Positions 4,989-37,418 of a DNA stretch of 42,017 nt are shown piece by piece; position 1 is the first letter of the stretch; every line of letters starts with the position of its first letter. Source of the DNA: a bacterium (GTDB lineage: Bacteria > Bacillota > Clostridia > Christensenellales > CAG-917); NCBI GenBank assembly GCA_963620965.1, contig CAVFCJ010000002.1:1-42017 (forward strand), in the 5' to 3' direction. The notes beneath the pieces are model-generated. The model searched no databases. It was not told the DNA's origin and saw nothing but the letters and a program-made list of their open reading frames with translations. The position numbers and the translations under genes are program-made.

Positions 4989-5040
4989 TGCGCTAAATCG
5001 ATGCATAACGCGAAAGCACCCCCATGAATTTCACCCCTAA
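4989..5040. repeat. Left-half fragment (copy A') of the nested-hairpin element family.
   Basis: TGCGCTAAATCGATGCATAACGCGAAAGCACCCC matches the left arm of copy B (19802-19835). It then degenerates (GAATTTCACCCCTAATT versus GAATGGCAACCCTAATTT) and has no right arm. Confidence 0.6.
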
Positions 5041-5174
5041 TTAAAAAAACCGCGCTATTTGGATGAAGAACGCGAAAGGCACGGCTTGAATCAAAACCCA
5101 GTGTACATAGACGTACACGATTTTGAGGCAAGCCGTGCCTGACAAAGTTATTCGCCAAATAGCACGGTTTTTTA
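5041..5174. repeat. Nested-hairpin element, copy A (variant apex). It probably also acts as terminator for the dnaK-operon tail.
   Basis: Outer arms TTAAAAAAACCGCGCTATTTGG / CCAAATAGCACGGTTTTTTA. Mid stem GGCACGGCTTG / CAAGCCGTGCC. Apical hairpin GTGTAC-N6-GTACAC. The last 3 nt form the TAA stop of the HIT gene. Confidence 0.7.
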
Positions 5175-5513
5175 GCACATCGTATCAGATAATTTTCCAC
5201 CGCCAAGTACATGAATATGCAAATGCCCCACCGACTGGCAACCGTCCTCACCCTTGTTGGATACGAGACGGAAACCGTTTTGAAGTCCCAATTCGTCGGT
5301 AAGCGTAGAGAGTTTTTTGAGGCATTTTGCGAGGGTTTGCGCTTGAGAGTCCGTCATCTCGATTATGTTTGCGTAATGCTCTTTTGGGATAAGCAAAAGA
5401 TGTATGGGGGCTTGCGGATTCAAGTCCTTTATGATAATCATATCGTCGTCTTCGTAGACTTTTGTAGACGGAATATCGCCTTTAACGATTTTGCAGAAAA
5501 TGCAGTTGTCCAT
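5172..5513 (-). CDS. HIT-family (histidine triad) nucleotide hydrolase/transferase.
   Basis: 113-aa ORF with the histidine triad HLHIHVLGG near the C-terminus and N-terminal CIFCKI. It is the last gene of the dnaK/mtaB cluster. Confidence 0.85.
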   Translation of the reverse strand: MDNCIFCKIVKGDIPSTKVYEDDDMIIIKDLNPQAPIHLLLIPKEHYANIIEMTDSQAQTLAKCLKKLSTLTDELGLQNGFRLVSNKGEDGCQSVGHLHIHVLGGGKLSDTMC

Positions 5514-19477: not shown

Positions 19478-19768
19478 CTTCCCCCTTCCTCACGTGTTTC
19501 CCCTACCGCCGTTCCCCCTCTGCATACTTTGAGGGAACCCACGGCGTCCGCTCCGCGTGGGGCAACACTGACGCGATTGACTTCGTAGCAATCGCTAGTT
19601 CGTTGCAAGCAACGAACGGCAGACGGGCTGTTGGCAATACAAATCGGCTGAAAGCCGTGCCACTGCGCTTTGTGTGCCAGCTACGCACCCAAACGGCACA
19701 GTCGGACGGTACTAATCGTCAAGCTCGGCGCTCCCTTTTCTCGCCGCCTTGCGGCTCGTGTTCCGTCT
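19478..19768. ncRNA. Candidate structured RNA or unclassified repeat, copy 1 of a ~290-nt element. Strand undetermined.
   Basis: Near-identical to 36957-37246. Dense local hairpins: CCCACG..CGTGGG, GCGATTG-N9-CAATCGC, GTTCGTTGC-AA-GCAACGAAC, CGGCT-GAA-AGCCG and TGTGCC-N16-GGCACA. One compensatory pair change distinguishes the copies. No convincing ORF and no match to any RNA family I can recall. Confidence 0.45.
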
Positions 19769-19794
19769 CTGTATAGGCAGAGTCTACGCTTCAA

Positions 19795-19923
19795 TTAAAA
19801 CTGCGCTAAATCGATGCATAACGCGAAAGCACCCCTTGAATGGCAACCCTAATTTACTAAGCGTAAATGAGTTGACAGGCAAGGGGTGCTGACAAAGTTA
19901 GGCGCGATTTAGCGCAGTTTTAA
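19795..19923. repeat. Nested-hairpin element, copy B (archetype). Probable terminator of the ABC transporter gene.
   Basis: Outer stem TTAAAACTGCGCTAAATCG / CGATTTAGCGCAGTTTTAA (perfect, 19 bp). Mid stem GCACCCCTTG / CAAGGGGTGC. Apex GAATGGCAACCCTA-ATTTAC-TAAGC-GTAAAT-GAGTTGACA. The ABC stop codon (19920-19922) lies in the terminal TTTTAA. Confidence 0.75.
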
Positions 19924-22865
19924 TCTACGCGTAGGGCGTCAACCACATTCTTGCGCGACGCCATAATCGCCGGAACTATACCCGAAATAATCGTTAGCGC
20001 CAAGCTCAAACATACGAGGATGAAGGCATGGAGTGGATGGAAATGGAGGAGAGATCCAATTCCGGTGACCGCTTTGATGATGAGCGACAGAATGGGGCAA
20101 AGGAGATATGTGACGACAATGCCGATAAGTCCGCTGCACAGACCGATGATGGAAGTTTCGGCAATAAAGACATTGCGAATATCTTTTTTGCGTGCGCCGA
20201 TTGCGCGGAGAATGCCGATTTCACGAGTACGTTCGACGACCGAGTTGGACGTGATGACTCCGATCATAACTGTGGATACGACAAGGGATATCGCAGCAAC
20301 GGCTATGAGCATTGCGGACACGAGGTCGAGCGTGCTTTGCATATTGACGAGGAACATTTCGGACACGTCAAAATAGCCGAGAGTGCCCTTGCCGGACTTT
20401 TGCCAAGCGGAAATATAGTTGCCCGAATTGGTCTTTTGATCGCTGTCATTGGGGAAAACAGTGACGTAATACGGACTCTTATCTGCACCGATTGCGCGCA
20501 TAAAATACGTGTATTTAAGTGCGGGCGTGTTGGCAACCGTTGCGAGCATCATATTGCCGTCGTTTATCTCTTTGTTGTCCAAACGAACGCCGAAAACCGT
20601 CTTTTTCCTGTCGCCGCTATTTGTTTTGTCCAGTTCCAACTGGCGCTGTGTAAAAGTGCTGTTCGCCGCGCTTTCGAGAGTGCTTTCGGCAAGCGAGGGC
20701 AGATAGCAAAGCGACGAACCGACGTATGTGTGTTCGGCTTCCTTCTTTGCACGGATAACGCCAACGATTGTGATTTCGTCGGAAGATTCGTCGTACATTT
20801 GTTGAAGTTTTTGTTGAGATTCTTCCGAATCGTCGTACCCCCACATCATCTCTTTGCTTTGGTCTTGAAGCATATCGCTCAAACCGCCGCTGCCTTCACC
20901 GCTCGATTCGCCGCCTTCGCCGAGTCCGAGATTTTCATATGTTTCGGTGCTTTCGTCGTAGGTGTAATAGGAATCGTTGTCGATGAGTTTGAACGACTGC
21001 CCCAAGAAGTATTCGTACGATACTTTTTCGGTGTCTATTTCGATGGGCTTGCCGTCCTCGCCGCGTTTGAGCGTGCCGTATTCGTCCTTCTCGTAAAGTT
21101 CGATTCCGAATGCGGAAAGTACCGATTTGCTAATGGTGTTGTCAGTGCCTACGCACAACAGAATTTCGTTTTTGTTTTGCGGGAATCTGCTTCCCTCGCC
21201 GATGAAATCGTAGGAACGCATCATAACGCCCTCGTCCGCAACGAGTTCTTGCCAATATTTTGCCTGCAAGCCGTTTTCGCCCAAAACCGTCGTAGCGCAC
21301 GCCGTCGTGGTGAGCGGTTGAGGCTGTTGCGAAGCGTCCTTGTACACAATGTTACCGTCCTTGTCGTATGTCTTTCTGACAAGGTTGTATCGCAAGCCAT
21401 AAGATATGCTCATCGCCGTGTAATAATCCTTTGGCATCGCTTTCATATAGTCGGCAAATTCTTCCGTCAAATCGTTCTTTTGAACGCCCGTCATAAAGGA
21501 TTTAACGACGGAATTTATCAACATCATCATCGCCGCAGTGCTGCTCGAACTGCTCGAAACCTTGATGTCGTCCGAATCGGGATAGAGGCTCGGATCTTCG
21601 GACGGCTTGTCCATCATGCTCGTCATCAAATCCATAATGGCGTTGTTGGATACGTTGTATTGATAAACGCCGAGAGGAACGCCCGAAAGCATTTCGGTTT
21701 CCATCTTGGCAAGATAGATGTTAAATCCGTTGTAAATTGACAAAACGAGCGCAAGACCTATAATGCCGATTGCGCCTGCAAATGACGTGAGCAACGTGCG
21801 GCGTTTTTTGGACACGAGGTTTTTAAGACTCAATCCGAACGCCATACCCGCGCTCATAGACGTGGGCTTGAACGCCTTGTCTTTTTTCTTTTTCTTCTTT
21901 GACAAACTGTTGAGTCCGAGTTTGTCGAACAAGGCTTTCGTCTCCTCGCCGACGTTTCTCATAGCACGTTTGCGCTTGCGGTTGGACGTCTTTTTCTTTT
22001 TGCCAGACTCCTCTTCGTTTTGCTCGTTTTGAGCGTTTATCTCCACGTTTTGTGATGTTAAACCGCTTGTTCGGTCCACTTCGACTTCTATTACGTCCGC
22101 CGTAGAATTTTCAAATGCGCTCGCTTCCGACTCGATTGTCAACGATTCTTCTGCGTCTTCGGATTGCTCGCAAAACTCGGTTTCGGGGTCGTACGGATTG
22201 GTGTCCTCGACAAGTTGACCGTCCTTAAAACGGCAAATACGCGTTGCGTACTGATAGGCGAGTTCGGCGTTGTGGGTAACCATAATGACAAGACGATTTT
22301 TTGAAATCTCTTGCAAAATGTCCATGACCTGCACGCTCAATTCGCTGTCAAGCGCACCTGTCGGCTCGTCGGCAAGAATGATTTTGGGGTCGTTGACAAT
22401 GGCTCTTGCGATTGCGACACGTTGCATTTGTCCGCCACTGAGTTGGTTGGGGCGTTTGTCGATTTGCTCGTGCATATTGACTTTGTGAAGCGCGGCAACC
22501 GCCTTTGCCCTGCGTGTTTTCTTCTTTTCGCCGACAAGGCTCAAAGCAAGTTCGACGTTTTCAAGCACGGTGAGATGCGGAATAAGATTGTAACTTTGAA
22601 ACACGAACCCTATGGTTGCGTTGCGATATGCGTCCCAATGCTCGTCGTCAAATTTCGCCGTAGAAACGCCGCCTATGACCAAGTCGCCCGACGTGTATCT
22701 GTCCAGCCCGCCGATGATGTTGAGCATTGTCGTTTTTCCGCAGCCGCTCGGACCGAGAATCGCCACGAATTCGCTTTCGCGGAAATTGAGCGACACTTTT
22801 CTCAAAGCGTGTACGGTCGTTGTGGCAGTGGGATAATCTTTTACTACGTCTTTAAGCTGAAGCAT
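19920..22865 (-). CDS. Fused ABC transporter with an N-terminal ATPase and a C-terminal FtsX/MacB-type permease carrying a large extracytoplasmic domain.
   Basis: 981 aa. Walker [10 protein letters not shown], signature LSGGQMQRV, Walker [14 protein letters not shown]-rich linker. The first TM is followed by ~470 aa of extracytoplasmic region, then an FtsX-like 3-TM bundle ([16 protein letters not shown]...). Confidence 0.88.
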
Positions 22866-23750: not shown

Positions 23751-23930
23751 ATGAAAATAAAACGAGCAAAAAGGCACAACCTGCCCTTATCTCACAGCAA
23801 TCTAACGACTCACGAGAATCTGCGCTCGCACTTCGATCCCAACGGAAGTTATACGGGCGTCCCCGAAAAGCACGGTTATCCCGACGTCCCCGACGACGAA
23901 AAACCCGTGCAAGACGTAGACGACTTATGA
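23751..23930 (+). CDS. Small hypothetical protein (59 aa) with a basic N-terminus and acidic C-terminus.
   Basis: AGGAG lies 5 nt upstream of ATG 23751. MKIKRAKRHNLPLSH...DPNGSYTGVPEKHGYPDVPDDEKPVQDVDDL. Divergent from the TetR gene. No family recognised with certainty. Confidence 0.5.
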   Translation: MKIKRAKRHNLPLSHSNLTTHENLRSHFDPNGSYTGVPEKHGYPDVPDDEKPVQDVDDL

Positions 23931-23979
23931 GCAAAAATCGTCGCTGAGGCAACGGCAATCGTGGGCGATTGACTTTGCC

Positions 23980-24050
23980 GCAACGCTGTTTGAGCAATGT
24001 GCAACCCTTATTTACTGATAGTAAATGAGTTGACAGACGATGGGCGTTGC
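23980..24050. repeat. Core-only copy (C1) of the nested-hairpin element.
   Basis: Mid stem GCAACGC / GCGTTGC encloses GCAACCCTT-ATTTAC-TGATA-GTAAAT-GAGTTGACA. The outer arms are absent. Confidence 0.55.
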
Positions 24051-24082
24051 TGCAGTTATTTGTTTTATTTGAACTATGGAAA

Positions 24083-24201
24083 GTCGCGCCAAATAGATGA
24101 AGAACGAGAAAGAGCCACCCGAACCGCAACCCTAATTTACTTATAGTAAATGAGTTGTCGGATGGGTGGCTCTGACAAAGTAATTCGCTATTTGGCACGG
24201 C
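24083..24201. repeat. Nested-hairpin element, copy C2. It overlaps the 3' end of the M28 peptidase gene.
   Basis: Outer arms GTCGCGCCAAATAG / CTATTTGGCACGGC. Mid stem GAGCCACCC / GGGTGGCTC. Apex CGCAACCCTA-ATTTAC-TTATA-GTAAAT-GAGTTG. The right arm encodes the last codons (R-A-K, part of S) and the TAG stop of the gene. Confidence 0.7.
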
Positions 24202-25510
24202 TTTCGTCGATTTTGGAAATGACGCGCAACACCACGTCCAACCCCAATCCCACCGTGTCTGGCGAGAAACGTTCGGGTACGTCGCGATAGGTGTGATAAT
24301 AATCGCTCATGACGGGATTTTGTGCAGCGAAAGTGATGGATTTTACGCCCGCTTTTTGGAAAGGCGTGGAGTCGCAACCGCCGACGGGGTTTGCGATGTC
24401 GCCGGGTTTTTGGATGCCCGCTTCTCTCATTGACTCTTTGAACATACGTTCCAAATCCTTGTCGAAATGGGGGCAAAGCCAGCTGTCGCCGTGAATGACT
24501 TCAAAATGATCTGCGTCGGCAATGGAGTCAATGTTGATGTGGTAGGCATTGTCGAGCATACCGTCGTCTTTGTGTTTGCGGGTGAAAGCAATGGAGCCGC
24601 GAAGACCTGATTCTTCCGCACCGATGTTGCAGTCAACGATACGGCAATTTTTTGGCATTTTGTCGGGATTTTCCTTGTAATACTTCACTACTTGATACGC
24701 AATTGAAACGCCGGTTGCGTTGTCCATTGCGCCAGGAGAAGCGATTGCTTCCGTCTTTTCGTTGTACATCGTGAGCAAGAACGCACATACGATGACGACG
24801 GGCGACGAATACAAAATGATTTGCGAGAGGATGTCATATGCTTTTGCGACGTTCCTAAACGTTTCAACGCCCAAAGAATCCACAGAGCCATATTGCAAAA
24901 TCATAATGAGAATGAGTGCGGCTGCGCTTAATATCGTCACGACGCCGACCGCAATCGCGCCGAGTCCCAAGCGAAGCACGACGCCGACAAAGCCGAGCTT
25001 GTGCTGTGATGCGCTGAGTTTGAGCGTCCAACTGGTGTCGGTGTGACCCGAAAGGAAGATCGTATAATCGTATTTTCCGTCTTCGGGAAGAAGTTCCGCA
25101 TAAGTGTTGTGCGACACTTTGTGCTTGAAGCACCAGTCGAAGCATGTGTTGTACTTGAACACGCTGACAACGAGCCAAATCCAAGTGAACGCCATATACA
25201 TCGTGCATACGAAGTGGGTTGCAAGACCGGCATATGTCGAGATATGAGCAAGCATTGTCGCAATGACAGTGATAATACAACCGATTATGCCTGCCCAACC
25301 TGCGTAAGGCAGACCGCCTATGGACGCGTGGGGCGCAAAGACAAAACTCTCGGTGACGGGGTTTAGTCCGATTTCTTTGAGTTTGTCCGACATATACTCG
25401 TGGTACTTCTTCTCGTTGTTCGAGCCGGGAAGGCGCGGGCCTATCTCGTTTGCGGCGTATTCGACCATTTCATAGGCTTCATCGCCGTACTTTTTGAGTT
25501 CGTCTCTCAT
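24188..25510 (-). CDS. M28-family metallopeptidase with transmembrane helices intercalated in the catalytic domain.
   Basis: 440 aa. M28 ligand motifs in order: SGHTDTS, GAMDNATG, GAEESGLRGS, YHTYRD. Hydrophobic helices lie before the H-x-D motif (two) and between it and the bridging Asp (at least two). Confidence 0.75.
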   Translation of the reverse strand: MRDELKKYGDEAYEMVEYAANEIGPRLPGSNNEKKYHEYMSDKLKEIGLNPVTESFVFAPHASIGGLPYAGWAGIIGCIITVIATMLAHISTYAGLATHFVCTMYMAFTWIWLVVSVFKYNTCFDWCFKHKVSHNTYAELLPEDGKYDYTIFLSGHTDTSWTLKLSASQHKLGFVGVVLRLGLGAIAVGVVTILSAAALILIMILQYGSVDSLGVETFRNVAKAYDILSQIILYSSPVVIVCAFLLTMYNEKTEAIASPGAMDNATGVSIAYQVVKYYKENPDKMPKNCRIVDCNIGAEESGLRGSIAFTRKHKDDGMLDNAYHINIDSIADADHFEVIHGDSWLCPHFDKDLERMFKESMREAGIQKPGDIANPVGGCDSTPFQKAGVKSITFAAQNPVMSDYYHTYRDVPERFSPDTVGLGLDVVLRVISKIDESRAK

Positions 25511-33661: not shown

Positions 33662-33792
33662 TTAAAAACTTCGATATTTAGATGCATAACAAGGAAGCGC
33701 CCCTTGACTGGCAACCCTAATTTACTATCCGTAAATGAGTTGACAGTCAAGGGGTGCTAACAAAGTTAGGCGCTATTTAGCGCGGTTTTTTA
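33662..33792. repeat. Nested-hairpin element, copy D.
   Basis: Right arm CTATTTAGCGCGGTTTTTTA; the left arm TTAAAAACTTCGATATTTAG is partly degenerate. Mid stem GCGCCCCTTGAC / GTCAAGGGGTGC (one G-T pair). Apex TGGCAACCCTA-ATTTAC-TATCC-GTAAAT-GAGTTGACA. Its last 3 nt are the stop codon of the 41-aa ORF. Confidence 0.7.
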
Positions 33793-33915
33793 CTTGCAAT
33801 CGGCCATCTCTTTTCCGCTGTTTTTAGCGCGAGATTTCGTTGTTTTGCTCGTTTTCGGTTCGTCGCAATGGCATGCGCCGCTGCGTTTGGATTGTTTGTT
33901 TTCGGATTTTGCCAT
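33790..33915 (-). CDS. Candidate small protein (41 aa), Lys/Ser-rich with a CHC...C arrangement. Not in the supplied ORF track because it is under 60 aa.
   Basis: Hand translation: MAKSENKQSKRSGACHCDEPKTSKTTKSRAKNSGKEMADCK. AGGAG lies 7 nt upstream of the ATG at 33915. A nested-hairpin element starts at the stop codon, as for four larger genes. Confidence 0.45.
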   Translation of the reverse strand: MAKSENKQSKRSGACHCDEPKTSKTTKSRAKNSGKEMADCK

Positions 33916-36936: not shown

Positions 36937-36956
36937 AAAACAATCAAAAATTAAAA

Positions 36957-37246
36957 CTTCCCCCTTCCTCACGTGTTTCCCCTACCGCCGTTCCCCCTCT
37001 GCATTCTTTGAGGGAACCCACGGCGTCCGCTCCGCGTGGGGCAACACTGACGCGATTGACTTCGTAGCAATCGCTAGTTCGTTGCACGCAACGAACGGCA
37101 GACGGGCTGTTGGCAATACAAATCGGCTGAAAGCCGTGCCACTGCGCTTTGTGCGCCAGCTACGCACCCAAACGGCGCAGTCGCTTGTACTGTCCGTCAA
37201 GCTCGGCGCTCCCTTTTCTCGCCGCCCTGCGGCTCGTGTTCCGTCT
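36957..37246. ncRNA. Candidate structured RNA or unclassified repeat, copy 2 of the ~290-nt element.
   Basis: Aligns end to end with 19478-19768. Five single-base differences, two of which form a compensatory pair, plus one replaced 15/16-nt patch. It starts 20 nt after the U32 stop codon with no terminator between them. Confidence 0.45.
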
Positions 37247-37289: not shown

Positions 37290-37418
37290 TTAAAACCGCG
37301 ATATTGAGATGAAGAACAAGAAAGAGACATCCGAATGGCAACCCTAATTTACATAGCGTAAATGAGTTGACAAGCGGATGCCTCTGACACAGTTATTCGC
37401 TCAATAGCGCGGTTTTAA
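37290..37418. repeat. Nested-hairpin element, copy E. Probable terminator of the 41934..37415 operon.
   Basis: Outer arms TTAAAACCGCGATATTGAG / CTCAATAGCGCGGTTTTAA. Mid stem GAGACATCCG / CGGATGCCTC (one A-C). Apex GAATGGCAACCCTA-ATTTAC-ATAGC-GTAAAT-GAGTTGACA. The stop codon at 37415-37417 lies inside the terminal TTTTAA. Confidence 0.75.

Follow-up and report, generated by a model that had tools for sequence, protein, structure and literature searches.

Background

REP, BIME and REPIN sequences, whose hosts are mainly Proteobacteria, are high-copy palindromes that lie downstream of genes, between co-directional as well as convergent ORFs. They occur in mosaic or tandem layouts and form long hairpins from inverted halves; roles in termination and mRNA stabilisation have been proposed for them, and they are mobilised by RAYT Y1 transposases. 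The enterobacterial ERIC (or IRU) element of 127 bp, pneumococcal BOX, the Correia elements of Neisseria and bcr1 of Bacillus cereus are MITE-like structured repeats that form long RNA hairpins, are co-transcribed and often lie near gene ends. BOX elements are modular, and in this class orientation can matter for effects on mRNA stability. These repeats have target duplications (TA, TTTAT) and are found in both orientations at variable distances from genes, and we know of no report that any of them embeds a stop codon as a rule. IS200/IS605 elements and PATEs make no target duplication, have imperfect hairpins with unpaired bases, and insert beside a short sequence in a strict orientation, with a strand bias tied to the lagging-strand template. 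In attC sites, structure is conserved and sequence is free, asymmetric unpaired bases set the polarity, and the site, which is read as single-stranded DNA, lies at the 3' ends of ORFs and often includes the stop codon.

Here we describe a hairpin element that has five full copies in a 42,017-nucleotide stretch of DNA from a member of the Clostridia (contig CAVFCJ010000002.1; hereafter, the window). Its genomic setting, layouts, inverted halves and possible roles are like those of REP, BIME and REPIN sequences. However, it is about 125 nt long with a conserved asymmetric loop and apex, whereas a REP is a palindrome of 20-40 nt; the REP tag GTAG is absent, and the other REP tag, CGTC, appears solely as part of the foot (CTGACG...CGTCAG) of the GC-rich subfamily. 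Its polarity relative to the gene is strict, with most copies beginning exactly at the stop codon, its hosts are Clostridia and Patescibacteria, and no RAYT was found in the loci. The element is similar in size to the ERIC, BOX, Correia and bcr1 repeats, but no sequence similarity to them was detected via Rfam. As in a MITE, the ends are inverted repeats, since the arms are complementary throughout; unlike TIRs bound by a transposase, however, the arms vary in sequence. The flanks are inverted complements rather than direct target duplications, and no recurrent transposase-like cluster is present among 757 ORFs from 114 loci and the window (about 0.8 Mb around copies).

The features by which a PATE is recognised, namely the lack of a target duplication, a strand-specific orientation and a short fixed neighbour (here T[AG]A), are all found in the element. 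IS200/IS605 elements, however, have distinct small hairpins at their two ends, while ours is one continuous hairpin; TnpA was not found in the loci, and a 3-nt target alone cannot explain the restriction to functional stop codons. Intrinsic terminators, including bidirectional ones with an A-tract and a U-tract, resemble the AT-rich variants in their U-tract and operon-end position, and one reduced copy (L152, below) in its entirety, but the element is about four times longer, contains conserved internal motifs and has no U-tract in its GC-rich variants. To our knowledge, no other family of repeats is linked so precisely to the stop codon (within a window of 6 nt for about 70% of copies), in one polarity and apparently on one replication strand.

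Results and discussion

Five copies in the window

The pattern GATGNANAACNNGNAAG-N45-75-CTNACANAGTNA matches the window five times, always on the plus strand, compared with no matches in shuffled sequence. A covariance model built from 118 copies recovers only the same five full copies, at 117-142 bits, and their gene-sense strand is the minus strand of the window. According to the first-pass annotation, the window has five full copies that share one polarity and each sit on the stop codon of a minus-strand gene; both the positions and the stops were confirmed. The copies are 72-87% identical to one another, with no near-identical pair at different loci. The genes that end on them were identified from Pfam.

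Copy A (5042-5174, minus strand) lies 3' of a HIT gene, the final gene of the operon hrcA-grpE-dnaK-dnaJ-prmA-rsmE-mtaB-HIT, whose stop codon TAA (5172-5174) is the foot of the stem. It has a minimum free energy of -68.8 kcal/mol (z = -12.8) and scores 134.3 bits with the covariance model. Just downstream in gene sense, 34 nt (4989-5022, minus strand) form the solo 3' half of a second element, 100% identical to the corresponding part of copy B, which is probably the leftover of an older or recombined tandem copy. Copy B itself (19794-19924, minus strand; z = -11.5; 142.1 bits) follows the gene for a 981-aa ABC/FtsX transporter; the stop codon TAA (19920-19922) is paired to the TTA at 19796-19798, with two further pairs reaching into the last codon. 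Copy C2 (24079-24205, minus strand; 127.7 bits) follows an M28 peptidase gene, the last of a leuS-serS-M28 unit. Its foot triplet is GAA instead of TAA, and the ORF therefore runs five codons (E-S-R-A-K) into the 5' arm before it stops at TAG (24188-24190), an arrangement found identically in two other loci (L094 and L103). Downstream of C2, an apex-only relative (23995-24058, minus strand) sits in another hairpin, with arms GCAACGC...GCGTTGC; it scores 20.4 bits, covering model positions 47-91, and is adjoined by another repeat module (TTGCTCAAACNGCGTTGCGG).

Copy D (33662-33792, minus strand; 117.1 bits) has at its foot the TAA (33790-33792) of a 41-aa ORF (33790-33915). This Cys-containing ORF is a real gene: its Shine-Dalgarno sequence is strong, and its homologue in the syntenic locus L001, with 71% amino acid identity and in-frame indels, likewise ends on a hairpin element. 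Copy E (37290-37418, minus strand; z = -10.8; 141.9 bits) follows the gene for a 492-aa metallophosphoesterase, the last of a unit that also contains a cation-efflux gene, and the stop codon TAA (37415-37417) pairs with TTA at 37291-37293. The apex GGCAACCC...GTTGACA, previously ascribed to all five copies, is present in four of them; copy A shares their polarity but has the apex of a separate subfamily, AAAUCGUGUAC...GUACACUGGGUUUUG (also given as CAAAACCC...GATTTTGA). The plus-strand neighbours do end in ordinary short terminators, as had been noted: an A-tract, hairpin and U-tract stand 12-20 nt past the stop codon, whereas the element stands on the stop codon itself.

A three-tier hairpin

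The element is a modular quasi-palindrome of about 125-135 nt that folds into a hairpin of three tiers. The outer stem measures about 17-20 bp, and its first base pairs are formed by the stop codon, T[AG]A, and a T[CT]A at the opposite end. Above it lies a conserved asymmetric internal loop, which reads in gene sense TAACTTTGTCAG on the 5' side and CTTYCKYGTTMTKCATC on the 3' side. The third tier consists of an inner stem of about 11 bp, free in sequence yet always complementary, and an apex hairpin whose UAC...GUA stem is conserved. Bases are paired in 90.8% of 5264 pair cells, compared with 65.6% in shuffles and about 40% when partners are slid; double changes are seen at 36 of the 45 pairs, and folding z-scores range from -6 to -13.

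Tests of which strand folds as RNA give conflicting results. The antisense strand folds better as RNA in 84 copies versus 34 (p = 5e-7), and the purine-rich, motif-like loops are antisense as well; on the gene-sense strand, a U.G pair (columns 60-83) is conserved in 82 of the 118 copies. G.U and A.C cells are about equally frequent in the variable stems (98 and 88, respectively), as would be expected from maintenance of a palindrome or from recent copies, and not from selection on RNA only.

We considered and rejected several known motifs. REP-like local palindromes in each arm (GCGC-N6-GCGC) are common in copies, and one scored as a terminator, but they have no covariation support because GCG is invariant. 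On inspection, a hammerhead reading fails because the motifs run in the opposite order around the inner stem and A replaces G at position 8, and a kink-turn reading because the partner strand lacks GA where one is required; Rfam gave no match for either. A box C/D reading of the CUGA, GAAA and GAUGA motifs failed on inspection.

Hosts and database searches

The hosts are uncultured gut Clostridia, represented by MAGs labelled CAG:238, CAG:475, 'Christensenella sp. UBA...' and Ca. Limadaptatus, together with a few Patescibacteria. With Rfam 15, only a tRNA-Thr passes the gathering score in the window, and nothing was found at E <= 10 on either strand of positions 19700-20000, which hold copy B. 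Viral contigs, PLSDB and INPHARED contain 0 matches to the element, and we rejected a phage, plasmid or viral origin on this ground. Clustering of the 757 ORFs from the 114 loci and the window revealed no transposase, RAYT, TnpA or integrase. Literature searches returned no description of this hairpin family, which is absent from RNA and repeat catalogues, that is, uncatalogued. RNA runs contained at most 15% of sampled words and consisted of contigs only; where a contig ends at the element, repeat breaks and divergence between variants confound the reading.

Anchoring on stop codons in other genomes

For comparison we assembled a sample of 118 usable copies from 114 loci in other genomes. A copy was considered anchored if the stop codon of an ORF of at least 60 codons started 19-24 nt before the 5' motif, a 6-nt window that corresponds to the stem foot. 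We found that 80 of the 118 copies were anchored, compared with 0 of 110 at the mirror-image position. About 17 more copies, detected by the model but not by the pattern, have identical placement, and orphan copies elsewhere in intergenic DNA are rare in the 118-copy sample. The 98 proteins encoded upstream of copies form 66 unrelated clusters, among them gdhA, fusA and an ABC transporter, and copies sit at operon ends. In a protein-anchored sample, which is independent of the element, the motifs were present at 36 of 39 orthologous sites with at least 59% identity. Anchoring thus holds on copies from other genomes, and the fixed polarity and position on the stop codon extend to dozens of species. 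The stop-codon observation is confirmed as real and general.

Gene ends on the opposite strand never carried a copy (0 of 240), while 12 of 349 non-seed co-oriented ends did. In 40 convergent contexts, the partner gene never bears a copy. GC skew is negative throughout the plus strand of the window; among the 8-kb loci, local GC skew is positive in 72 and negative in 30, a measure too noisy to assign the replication strand. The absence of copies from opposite-strand gene ends, judged on 8-kb blocks and noisy local GC skew, suggests indirectly that copies are confined to leading-strand genes, and such a replication-strand effect seems to add to stop anchoring rather than to replace it.

The stop codon as part of the element

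Stop codons differ between genes with and without the element: TAA, TGA and TAG make up 79%, 20% and 1% of stops with it, versus 50%, 41% and 9% without (p = 3e-6). Different genes in one genome can have the same foot (for example, CTGACGCTCTCATTTG in L027, L039, L063 and L067), and distal copies in arrays retain TAA though no ORF ends there. The stop codon is shown to behave as a component of the element.

Pairing is 95%, 87% and 82% at the three bases of the stop codon, then 68% at position -1 and 49% at position -2. The base just 3' of the foot complements the last coding base in 14 of 19 cases for A (T), 23 of 38 for C (G), 7 of 10 for G (C) and 9 of 11 for T (A). GC-rich subfamilies end in CTGACG...CGTCAG, without TTAA. 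The TTAA brackets of copies B and E had been read as either a stem extension or a target duplication. Because the flank complements the coding base and the GC-rich ends have no TTAA, the stem extension, with one or two pairs past the stop codon, is the correct reading; the same complement matrix (-1/+1) and CTGACG...CGTCAG ends rule out a TTAA or TAA target duplication. The gradual fade of pairing, with a flank that tracks the coding base, resembles selection for a closed stem or templated correction, and not a sharp boundary.

Downstream, a T-rich 3' foot (four or more T among its last 7 nt) is present in 43 of 78 copies and missing from the other 35; no copy of the GC-rich subfamily has one. 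The AT-rich variants have the form TAAAACCGCG...CGCGGTTTTA, in which a GC-rich lower stem is followed by a U-tract.

Turnover at orthologous sites

At the stop codon of the ABC transporter gene, at least seven variants of the element occur among relatives with 88-97% protein identity. Arrays at this site include L127, which reads [5][4], and L150, which reads [4][5], and some copies have no 3' outer arm. The copy in L152 is cut down to the inner stem and a T-run, and is a canonical terminator. Empty sites (L155, L145 and L149) have plain terminators or the next gene, and the LRVD* C-terminus is unchanged. Such sites were found in the more distant relatives, the variants and arrays in close ones. 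In a second filled-versus-empty comparison (L093 and L082), the locus is rearranged and the exact 3' boundary is unreadable. Arrays in the family are tandem or mosaic; in about 20 of 24, the higher score belongs to the proximal copy. The ABC transporter site shows that the family turns over fast at one orthologous stop codon.

A companion repeat

A GC-rich structured repeat of about 290 nt, a candidate ncRNA, is present twice in the window, 26 nt downstream of copy B (19480-19768, minus strand) and 44 nt downstream of copy E (36949-37246, minus strand), each time in the orientation of the hairpin. The two copies are 95-97% identical to each other, and Rfam has no match to the repeat. RNA contig depth on the first is 100-650, versus about 10 on the gene. 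About 45 of the 114 hairpin loci contain the repeat, mostly directly downstream and co-oriented (about 25 versus 7). It is present in the window and L120 but missing from L122 and L124, which have the same hairpin, and is thus a discrete insertion. Its spacing from the hairpin ranges from about 3 to more than 40 nt, and in the window it follows a separate small hairpin; in L014 and L084 it is also found inverted.

Origin and function of the element

The reading we prefer, to which we assign a probability of about one half, is that of a mobile or recombining palindrome, like REP, BIME and REPIN sequences, that supplies both the stop codon and the 3' stem-loop of a gene. It would be a non-autonomous DNA element in the manner of these families and of ERIC and BOX, and its terminal triplet would be a TAA or TGA that it brings along. 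Installation would take place in one polarity at the ends of genes on one DNA strand, probably the leading strand, and this restriction points to a single-stranded DNA step at the replication fork. Tandem duplication, shuffling and replacement would follow through recombination between copies. Copies would persist because the gene gains a stop codon and a 3' stem-loop, which may act as a terminator in AT-rich variants and protect 3' ends generally. The asymmetric loops and apex would set the polarity, and are most likely the recognition surface for a putative trans-acting protein. We infer mobility as such, the link to single-stranded DNA and replication, the terminator or stabiliser role and the partner protein.

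The pattern in the window had been taken to imply either site-specific insertion at gene ends or a 3' UTR/terminator module; each finds support in our data, and neither is proven. Installation is favoured by the seven or more variants at one stop codon, the empty sites, the tandem and mosaic arrays, and the element-specific stop usage. A 3'-end module is favoured by the operon-end position, the U-tract in many copies, the terminator in L152 and the pairing across the stop codon, although GC-rich variants without a U-tract argue against a plain terminator. Several observations weigh against a mobile element: no target duplication, no transposase or RAYT among the 757 ORFs of the loci, window copies that are only 72-87% identical with no near-identical pair, and no match in plasmid, phage and viral collections. 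Nor is the precision easily explained by insertion alone. To a mechanism that acts on DNA, the TAA of a functional stop is no different from other TAA triplets, and neutral retention would scatter many intergenic copies, yet orphans are rare; pairing also fades gradually past the stop codon into a 3' flank matched to the coding base. The recurrence of the loop motifs in Clostridia and Patescibacteria suggests a function beyond selfish spread.

A less probable explanation, though one we take seriously, is a cis-acting RNA module at the 3' end, in which the stop codon is buried in the stem, the ribosome has to open the lower stem as it terminates, the internal loop and apex are read by a conserved factor, and spread between genes is secondary. 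This factor might be RNase III, as at phage T7 processing hairpins with asymmetric internal loops, or else a protein that binds RNA. Such a module would account for the continued pairing of the stop codon and last wobble base, the adaptation of the 3' flank to the coding base, a gene-tied polarity with no exception in the mirror test, motifs conserved in two phyla and at 36 of 39 orthologous sites in the protein-anchored sample, and the conserved gene-sense U.G pair (82 of 118). It also fits the better preservation of proximal than distal copies and the abundant, co-oriented structured RNA that is often downstream and would need separation from the mRNA. However, G.U cells are not in excess over A.C cells in the variable stems, the antisense strand folds better as RNA (84 versus 34, p = 5e-7) and carries the motif-like loops, the absence from opposite-strand genes (0 of 240) has no rationale at the RNA level, and variants at one site are swapped wholesale rather than drifting. 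Alternatively, the hairpin might exist mainly to serve the 290-nt repeat, either as the structure to which it attaches or which it targets or as its 5' terminal part, by analogy with group IIC introns or IS1111-type elements that target terminator or REP hairpins. We consider this improbable: the repeat is a discrete insertion, mainly directly downstream and co-oriented in the loci that have it, but such a unit is missing at three of the five copies in the window and at the majority of all copies, the spacing is variable and in the window the unit follows a separate small hairpin, the unit is inverted in L014 and L084, and the anchoring on stop codons would be left unexplained.

Still less weight goes to an attC-like single-strand recombination site at the 3' ends of ORFs, with extrahelical bases and read on one strand. 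The element recalls such sites in its length of about 125 nt, conserved structure with free sequence, fixed polarity relative to the ORF, internal stop codon and strand restriction, and one subfamily (GCCTAAC...GTTATGC) comes near RYYYAAC...GTTRRRY. The fit to the core sites is nevertheless partial and confined to that subfamily, others (GAATAAC...GTTCTTC) departing from it; the R-like boxes are internal, with the 17-bp outer stem outside them; and the genes belong to housekeeping operons kilobases apart (the dnaK operon, leuS-serS, the ABC transporter) and not to cassette arrays, with no integrase among the ORFs of the loci. Finally, the first-pass annotation had named small-sample coincidence, or a pure effect of the replication strand unrelated to stop codons, as what would undo the pattern. 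All five window copies are on the strand that carries most genes, and a strand effect seems to exist (0 of 240), but as an addition to anchoring; with 80 of 118 copies anchored versus 0 of 110 in the mirror position, and the model-only and protein-anchored samples in agreement, this explanation is refuted and we give it almost no weight.

Conclusions

With one copy per approximately 8 kb in the window, the family could mark the ends of a sizeable share of transcription units, in lineages that are common in human and animal metagenomes. Because it is in no catalogue, gene callers, terminator predictors and repeat maskers miss it. The fold may, with a chance well short of even, be a functional unit read at the stop codon and not a decorated terminator, in one of two forms: a ribosome-opened RNA module, recognised by a conserved factor, that couples translation termination to mRNA 3'-end processing, decay or release of a downstream structured RNA, or a cassette of stop codon and 3' end mobilised as single-stranded DNA. 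In the latter form, it may be installed only on lagging-strand-template DNA, with the target chosen by base pairing between the 3' foot and the stop codon. If either is true, it has no described precedent, and it would affect perhaps at least 100 genes per genome, as extrapolated from five copies in 42 kb, in two phyla. An explanation would bring to light either a new way of directing DNA insertion to the ends of genes or a 3'-end RNA device, likewise new, that acts at translation termination. With hundreds of variants whose stems are free and whose loops are fixed, the family forms a large natural data set, which makes the question testable.

Copies of the element in the window

Repeat finding, the motif pattern (two conserved loop motifs at set spacing) and a covariance model built from 118 copies agree on five full copies of the element in the window: A at 5042-5174, B at 19794-19924, C2 at 24079-24205, D at 33662-33792 and E at 37290-37418, all with the minus strand as gene sense. 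Fragments lie at 4989-5022 and 23995-24058. The first-pass annotation had placed every full copy on a minus-strand stop codon in a single polarity, and this holds for all five. Each folds as a long and very stable hairpin (-48 to -69 kcal/mol); compared with dinucleotide shuffles the z-scores are -6 to -13. Plus-strand genes use ordinary A-tract/hairpin/U-tract terminators 12-20 nt past their stops, as had also been noted.

The genes concerned are real. The HIT gene before copy A is the last of an hrcA-grpE-dnaK-dnaJ-prmA-rsmE-mtaB operon; copies B, C2 and E follow a 981-aa ABC/FtsX transporter, an M28 peptidase located after leuS-serS, and a metallophosphoesterase. The 41-aa ORF at copy D (33790-33915, minus) is likely an unannotated small protein: it has a strong Shine-Dalgarno/ribosome-binding site, is lysine-rich with a CHC...C motif, and has a syntenic counterpart in a related species (L001, 329-451) that is 71% identical with in-frame indels.

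The stop codon forms the foot of the stem in four of the five copies. The exception is C2 (24188-24205), where the foot triplet is GAA instead of TAA and the M28 ORF therefore reads five codons into the arm and ends at TAG. The orthologues in two other species (L094, L103) have the same arrangement, a natural instance of stop loss at the foot. These M28 peptidases gain five element-encoded residues, ESRAK or ESRTK, followed by TAG or TAA within the arm.

Anatomy and fold

Read in gene sense, the element starts with the stop codon and an A-rich foot, followed by an outer stem of about 17-20 bp and a short imperfect helix closing in UAAC/GUUN. Above these lie an asymmetric internal loop (UUUGUC-like on the 5' side, UUUCGC-like on the 3' side, with one invariant G-C pair within), an inner stem of about 11 bp, a small internal loop, and an apex helix, whose UAC...GUA stem is nearly invariant and whose loop is free. 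In the alignment of 118 copies, 90.8% of pair cells hold standard pairs, compared with 65.6% in shuffles and about 40% with slid partners, and 36 of 45 pairs have changed on both sides. The motif positions could not vary in this alignment, since the pattern had selected them. In the unbiased copies, those found only by the model and those of a protein-anchored sample, the 5' motif is TA[AG]CT[TG][TC]G[TG][CT]A[AGC] and the 3' motif ends in GTTCTTCATC or GTTATGCATC. The element matches no Rfam family.

Anchoring at gene ends across genomes

We scanned one genome per species for both loop motifs, and at least 114 stretches matched. Among the matches listed, nearly all carriers are MAGs of uncultured gut Clostridia (labelled CAG:238, CAG:475, 'Christensenella sp. 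UBA...', Ca. Limadaptatus or UMGS...), four loci belong to Patescibacteria (two Ca. Campbellbacteria, one Ca. Saccharibacteria and one groundwater bin), and one or two (L053, L017) are chance matches. Several species labels are plainly wrong. Carriers labelled Phascolarctobacterium succinatutens, Bacteroides sp., Butyrivibrio crossotus or Anaeroplasmataceae (L005, L007, L030, L031 and others) have DNA 85-94% identical to the window and to 'Clostridiales' MAGs; the taxonomy given by their submitters is evidently in error.

Each copy was read in the direction of the adjacent gene, with ORFs of at least 60 codons. In 80 of the 118 usable copies among the matches listed, the ORF stop begins 19-24 nt before the 5' motif, a 6-nt window in which the outer stem starts to pair; the mirror test, for a gene ending on the other arm in the same window, gave 0 of 110. 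The model adds 41 copies missed by the pattern, about 17 of them likewise placed on a stop codon, the remainder being mostly distal units of head-to-tail arrays. At the loci among the matches listed, the 98 upstream proteins form 66 unrelated clusters, with glutamate dehydrogenase, EF-G, a BipA-like GTPase, hydrogenase and transporters among them; the element is therefore tied to gene ends generally and not to one gene family.

The stop codon as part of the element

Genes with the element end in TAA, TGA and TAG in 79%, 20% and 1% of cases, against 50%, 41% and 9% for other genes of the same loci (p = 3e-6). The bias tracks subfamily (TAAAAC... in AT-rich genomes, CTGACG... in GC-rich ones). 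Within a single genome, copies at different genes have an identical foot, and distal array members retain TAA with no ORF ending there. At its other end the element carries the complement of the stop. Watson-Crick pairing drops from 95, 87 and 82% over the stop triplet to 68% at the final coding base and 49% one base further into the gene; from -3 it is at background (about 32%). The stop codon belongs to the element. The last coding base is C in 39% of carriers vs 16% of other genes, and whatever its identity, the base after the 3' foot complements it. Of the two origins proposed earlier for the TTAA brackets of copies B and E, this pairing identifies stem extension and excludes a direct target duplication.

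Turnover at the ABC transporter stop codon

Searching metagenomes with the last 200 residues of the ABC transporter gave 46 loci, chosen via the protein and not the element. Among orthologues of at least 59% identity with enough downstream sequence, the element lies directly on the stop codon in about 36 and is absent in three. At two empty sites (L155, 77% identity; L145, 71%) a simple terminator lies 20-30 nt downstream, and at the third (L149, 69%) the transporter gene runs into the next gene. The protein ends in ...LRVD* at filled and empty sites alike, so the element leaves it unaltered.

At least seven variants occur among relatives whose proteins are 88-97% identical, and the differences affect outer stem, loop variant, inner stem and apex. 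Two variants have one outer arm in common and different inner modules, and at L127 and L150 those two modules stand in tandem, in reversed order between the loci. Some copies at this site lack the 3' outer arm; a deletion derivative directly after the gene (L152, 2100-2210) retains the inner stem and TTTTTTT only, and is a canonical intrinsic terminator. By model score, the copy next to the stop is the best preserved one in about 20 of 24 arrays. Such turnover marks a repeat that recombines and is replaced, and not a conserved RNA undergoing slow drift.

A second structured repeat

A GC-rich, structured unit of 230-300 nt occurs at 19480-19768 and 36949-37246 (minus) in the window, where its copies are 95-97% identical, and in L012, L019, L057, L084, L008, L033, L113, L120 and others. 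It accompanies about 45 of the 114 hairpin loci among the matches listed, usually just downstream of the hairpin and co-oriented. Its 5' and 3' parts are conserved and its middle is variable or insertable; in the consensus fold, U.G pairs are conserved on the gene-sense strand and some positions show compensatory change, and Rfam has no match to it. It is a discrete insertion, found in the window and L120 and not in L122 or L124. Metatranscriptome contigs pile up on it to a depth of 100-650, vs about 10 on the neighbouring gene, in RNA runs that contain at most 15% of the sampled words and are stored as contigs. The unit is probably an unclassified abundant ncRNA or a mobile RNA-like element.

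A 130-nt piece (window 19479-19608) is 100% identical to L014 1-130, where it is inverted; flanking genes of the two species are 87% identical, which suggests recent transfer or very strong constraint. In L068 a copy is interrupted by a run of N at about 5400-5480, where the genome collection is masked. Further intergenic modules adjoin hairpins (window 23930-24000; L094 4266-4930; L116 2300-2700; the 3' flanks in L033 and L070), such as TTGCTCAAACNGCGTTGCGGCAAAGTCAATCGCCCAC and the 5' piece GACGGAACRCGAGCCGCAAGGCGGCGAG. Their combinations differ from species to species, and they fill about 600 nt in L094 and L014 where the window has at most 86 nt.

Strand restriction and nature of the element

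In the 114 loci among the matches listed, non-tandem copy pairs are all co-oriented, and 0 of 240 opposite-strand gene ends carry a copy; from the same-strand, non-seed gene ends (12 of 349) about 8 would be expected (P ~2e-4). Among 40 convergent gene pairs, never more than one partner is decorated. The plus strand of the window has negative GC skew end to end, so its copies sit on the G-rich and presumably leading strand, as do most of its genes; local skew in the 8-kb blocks of other loci is too noisy to confirm the strand.

Evidence on whether the fold acts as RNA or DNA, and on which strand, conflicts. Selection on one strand as RNA would leave G.U cells clearly in excess, and the variable stems have nearly equal numbers of G.U (98) and A.C (88) cells. 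The antisense strand folds better as RNA (mean -62.4 vs -59.6 kcal/mol; 84 copies vs 34; p = 5e-7) and carries the purine-rich internal loops. A conserved U.G pair lies in the apex helix of the gene-sense strand in 82 of 118 copies, and a U-tract stands at the 3' foot in about half of the copies, none of them in the GC-rich subfamily.

The element behaves like the interspersed palindromic repeats of other bacteria, but differs from REPs in size and tag, from MITEs in target duplication, and from IS200/IS605 derivatives in having no two distinct end hairpins. What is new is the combination of a three-tier conserved fold, a stop codon as its first pairs, one polarity and two phyla, with an apparent restriction to one replication strand. 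We consider it about an even chance that this is a REP/BIME/REPIN-like mobile or recombining palindromic repeat that carries a stop codon in one polarity and is kept as a 3' stem-loop. Such an element would bring its own stop triplet, be installed in one polarity on one DNA strand, and be retained because it serves as the gene's 3' stem-loop; its conserved asymmetric loops and apex may be the handle for a putative protein. REP termini that supply stop codons have precedent (PMC3733652). Turnover, mosaics, arrays, empty sites, stop usage, strand restriction and symmetric wobble counts argue for this reading. Against it count the lack of a transposase among the ORFs of the loci, of target duplication at the flanks, and of near-identical copies at different sites within the window. 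Its foremost weak point is that a DNA-level process alone cannot tell a functional stop codon from any other TAA, yet orphan copies are rare and the stem stays closed even into the last codon. These points keep alive a less probable alternative, that the fold works at the 3' end as a true RNA device, read when translation terminates, such as an RNase III-type processing hairpin.

Quasi-palindromes are known to mutate through templated correction by intramolecular strand switching, which could yield both the compensated stems and the outward stem growth in the absence of selection. Selection would then still have to protect the loops. An attC-like origin has low probability, since core sites and cassette context do not fit, and we give similarly little weight to the element being a landing pad. 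Small-sample coincidence, raised by the first-pass annotation, is less probable still, with the gene-end relation recurring so widely and the mirror arrangement in 0 of 110 cases. The annotation's other caution, a strand-of-replication effect, seems right as to the restriction itself but fails as sole explanation, given the same anchoring at stops. That the anchoring reflects a mechanism so far undescribed is less likely than not, but the chance is a serious one. If the strand restriction of the repeat holds, the gene-sense strand of each copy would be the lagging-strand template, transiently single-stranded at the fork.
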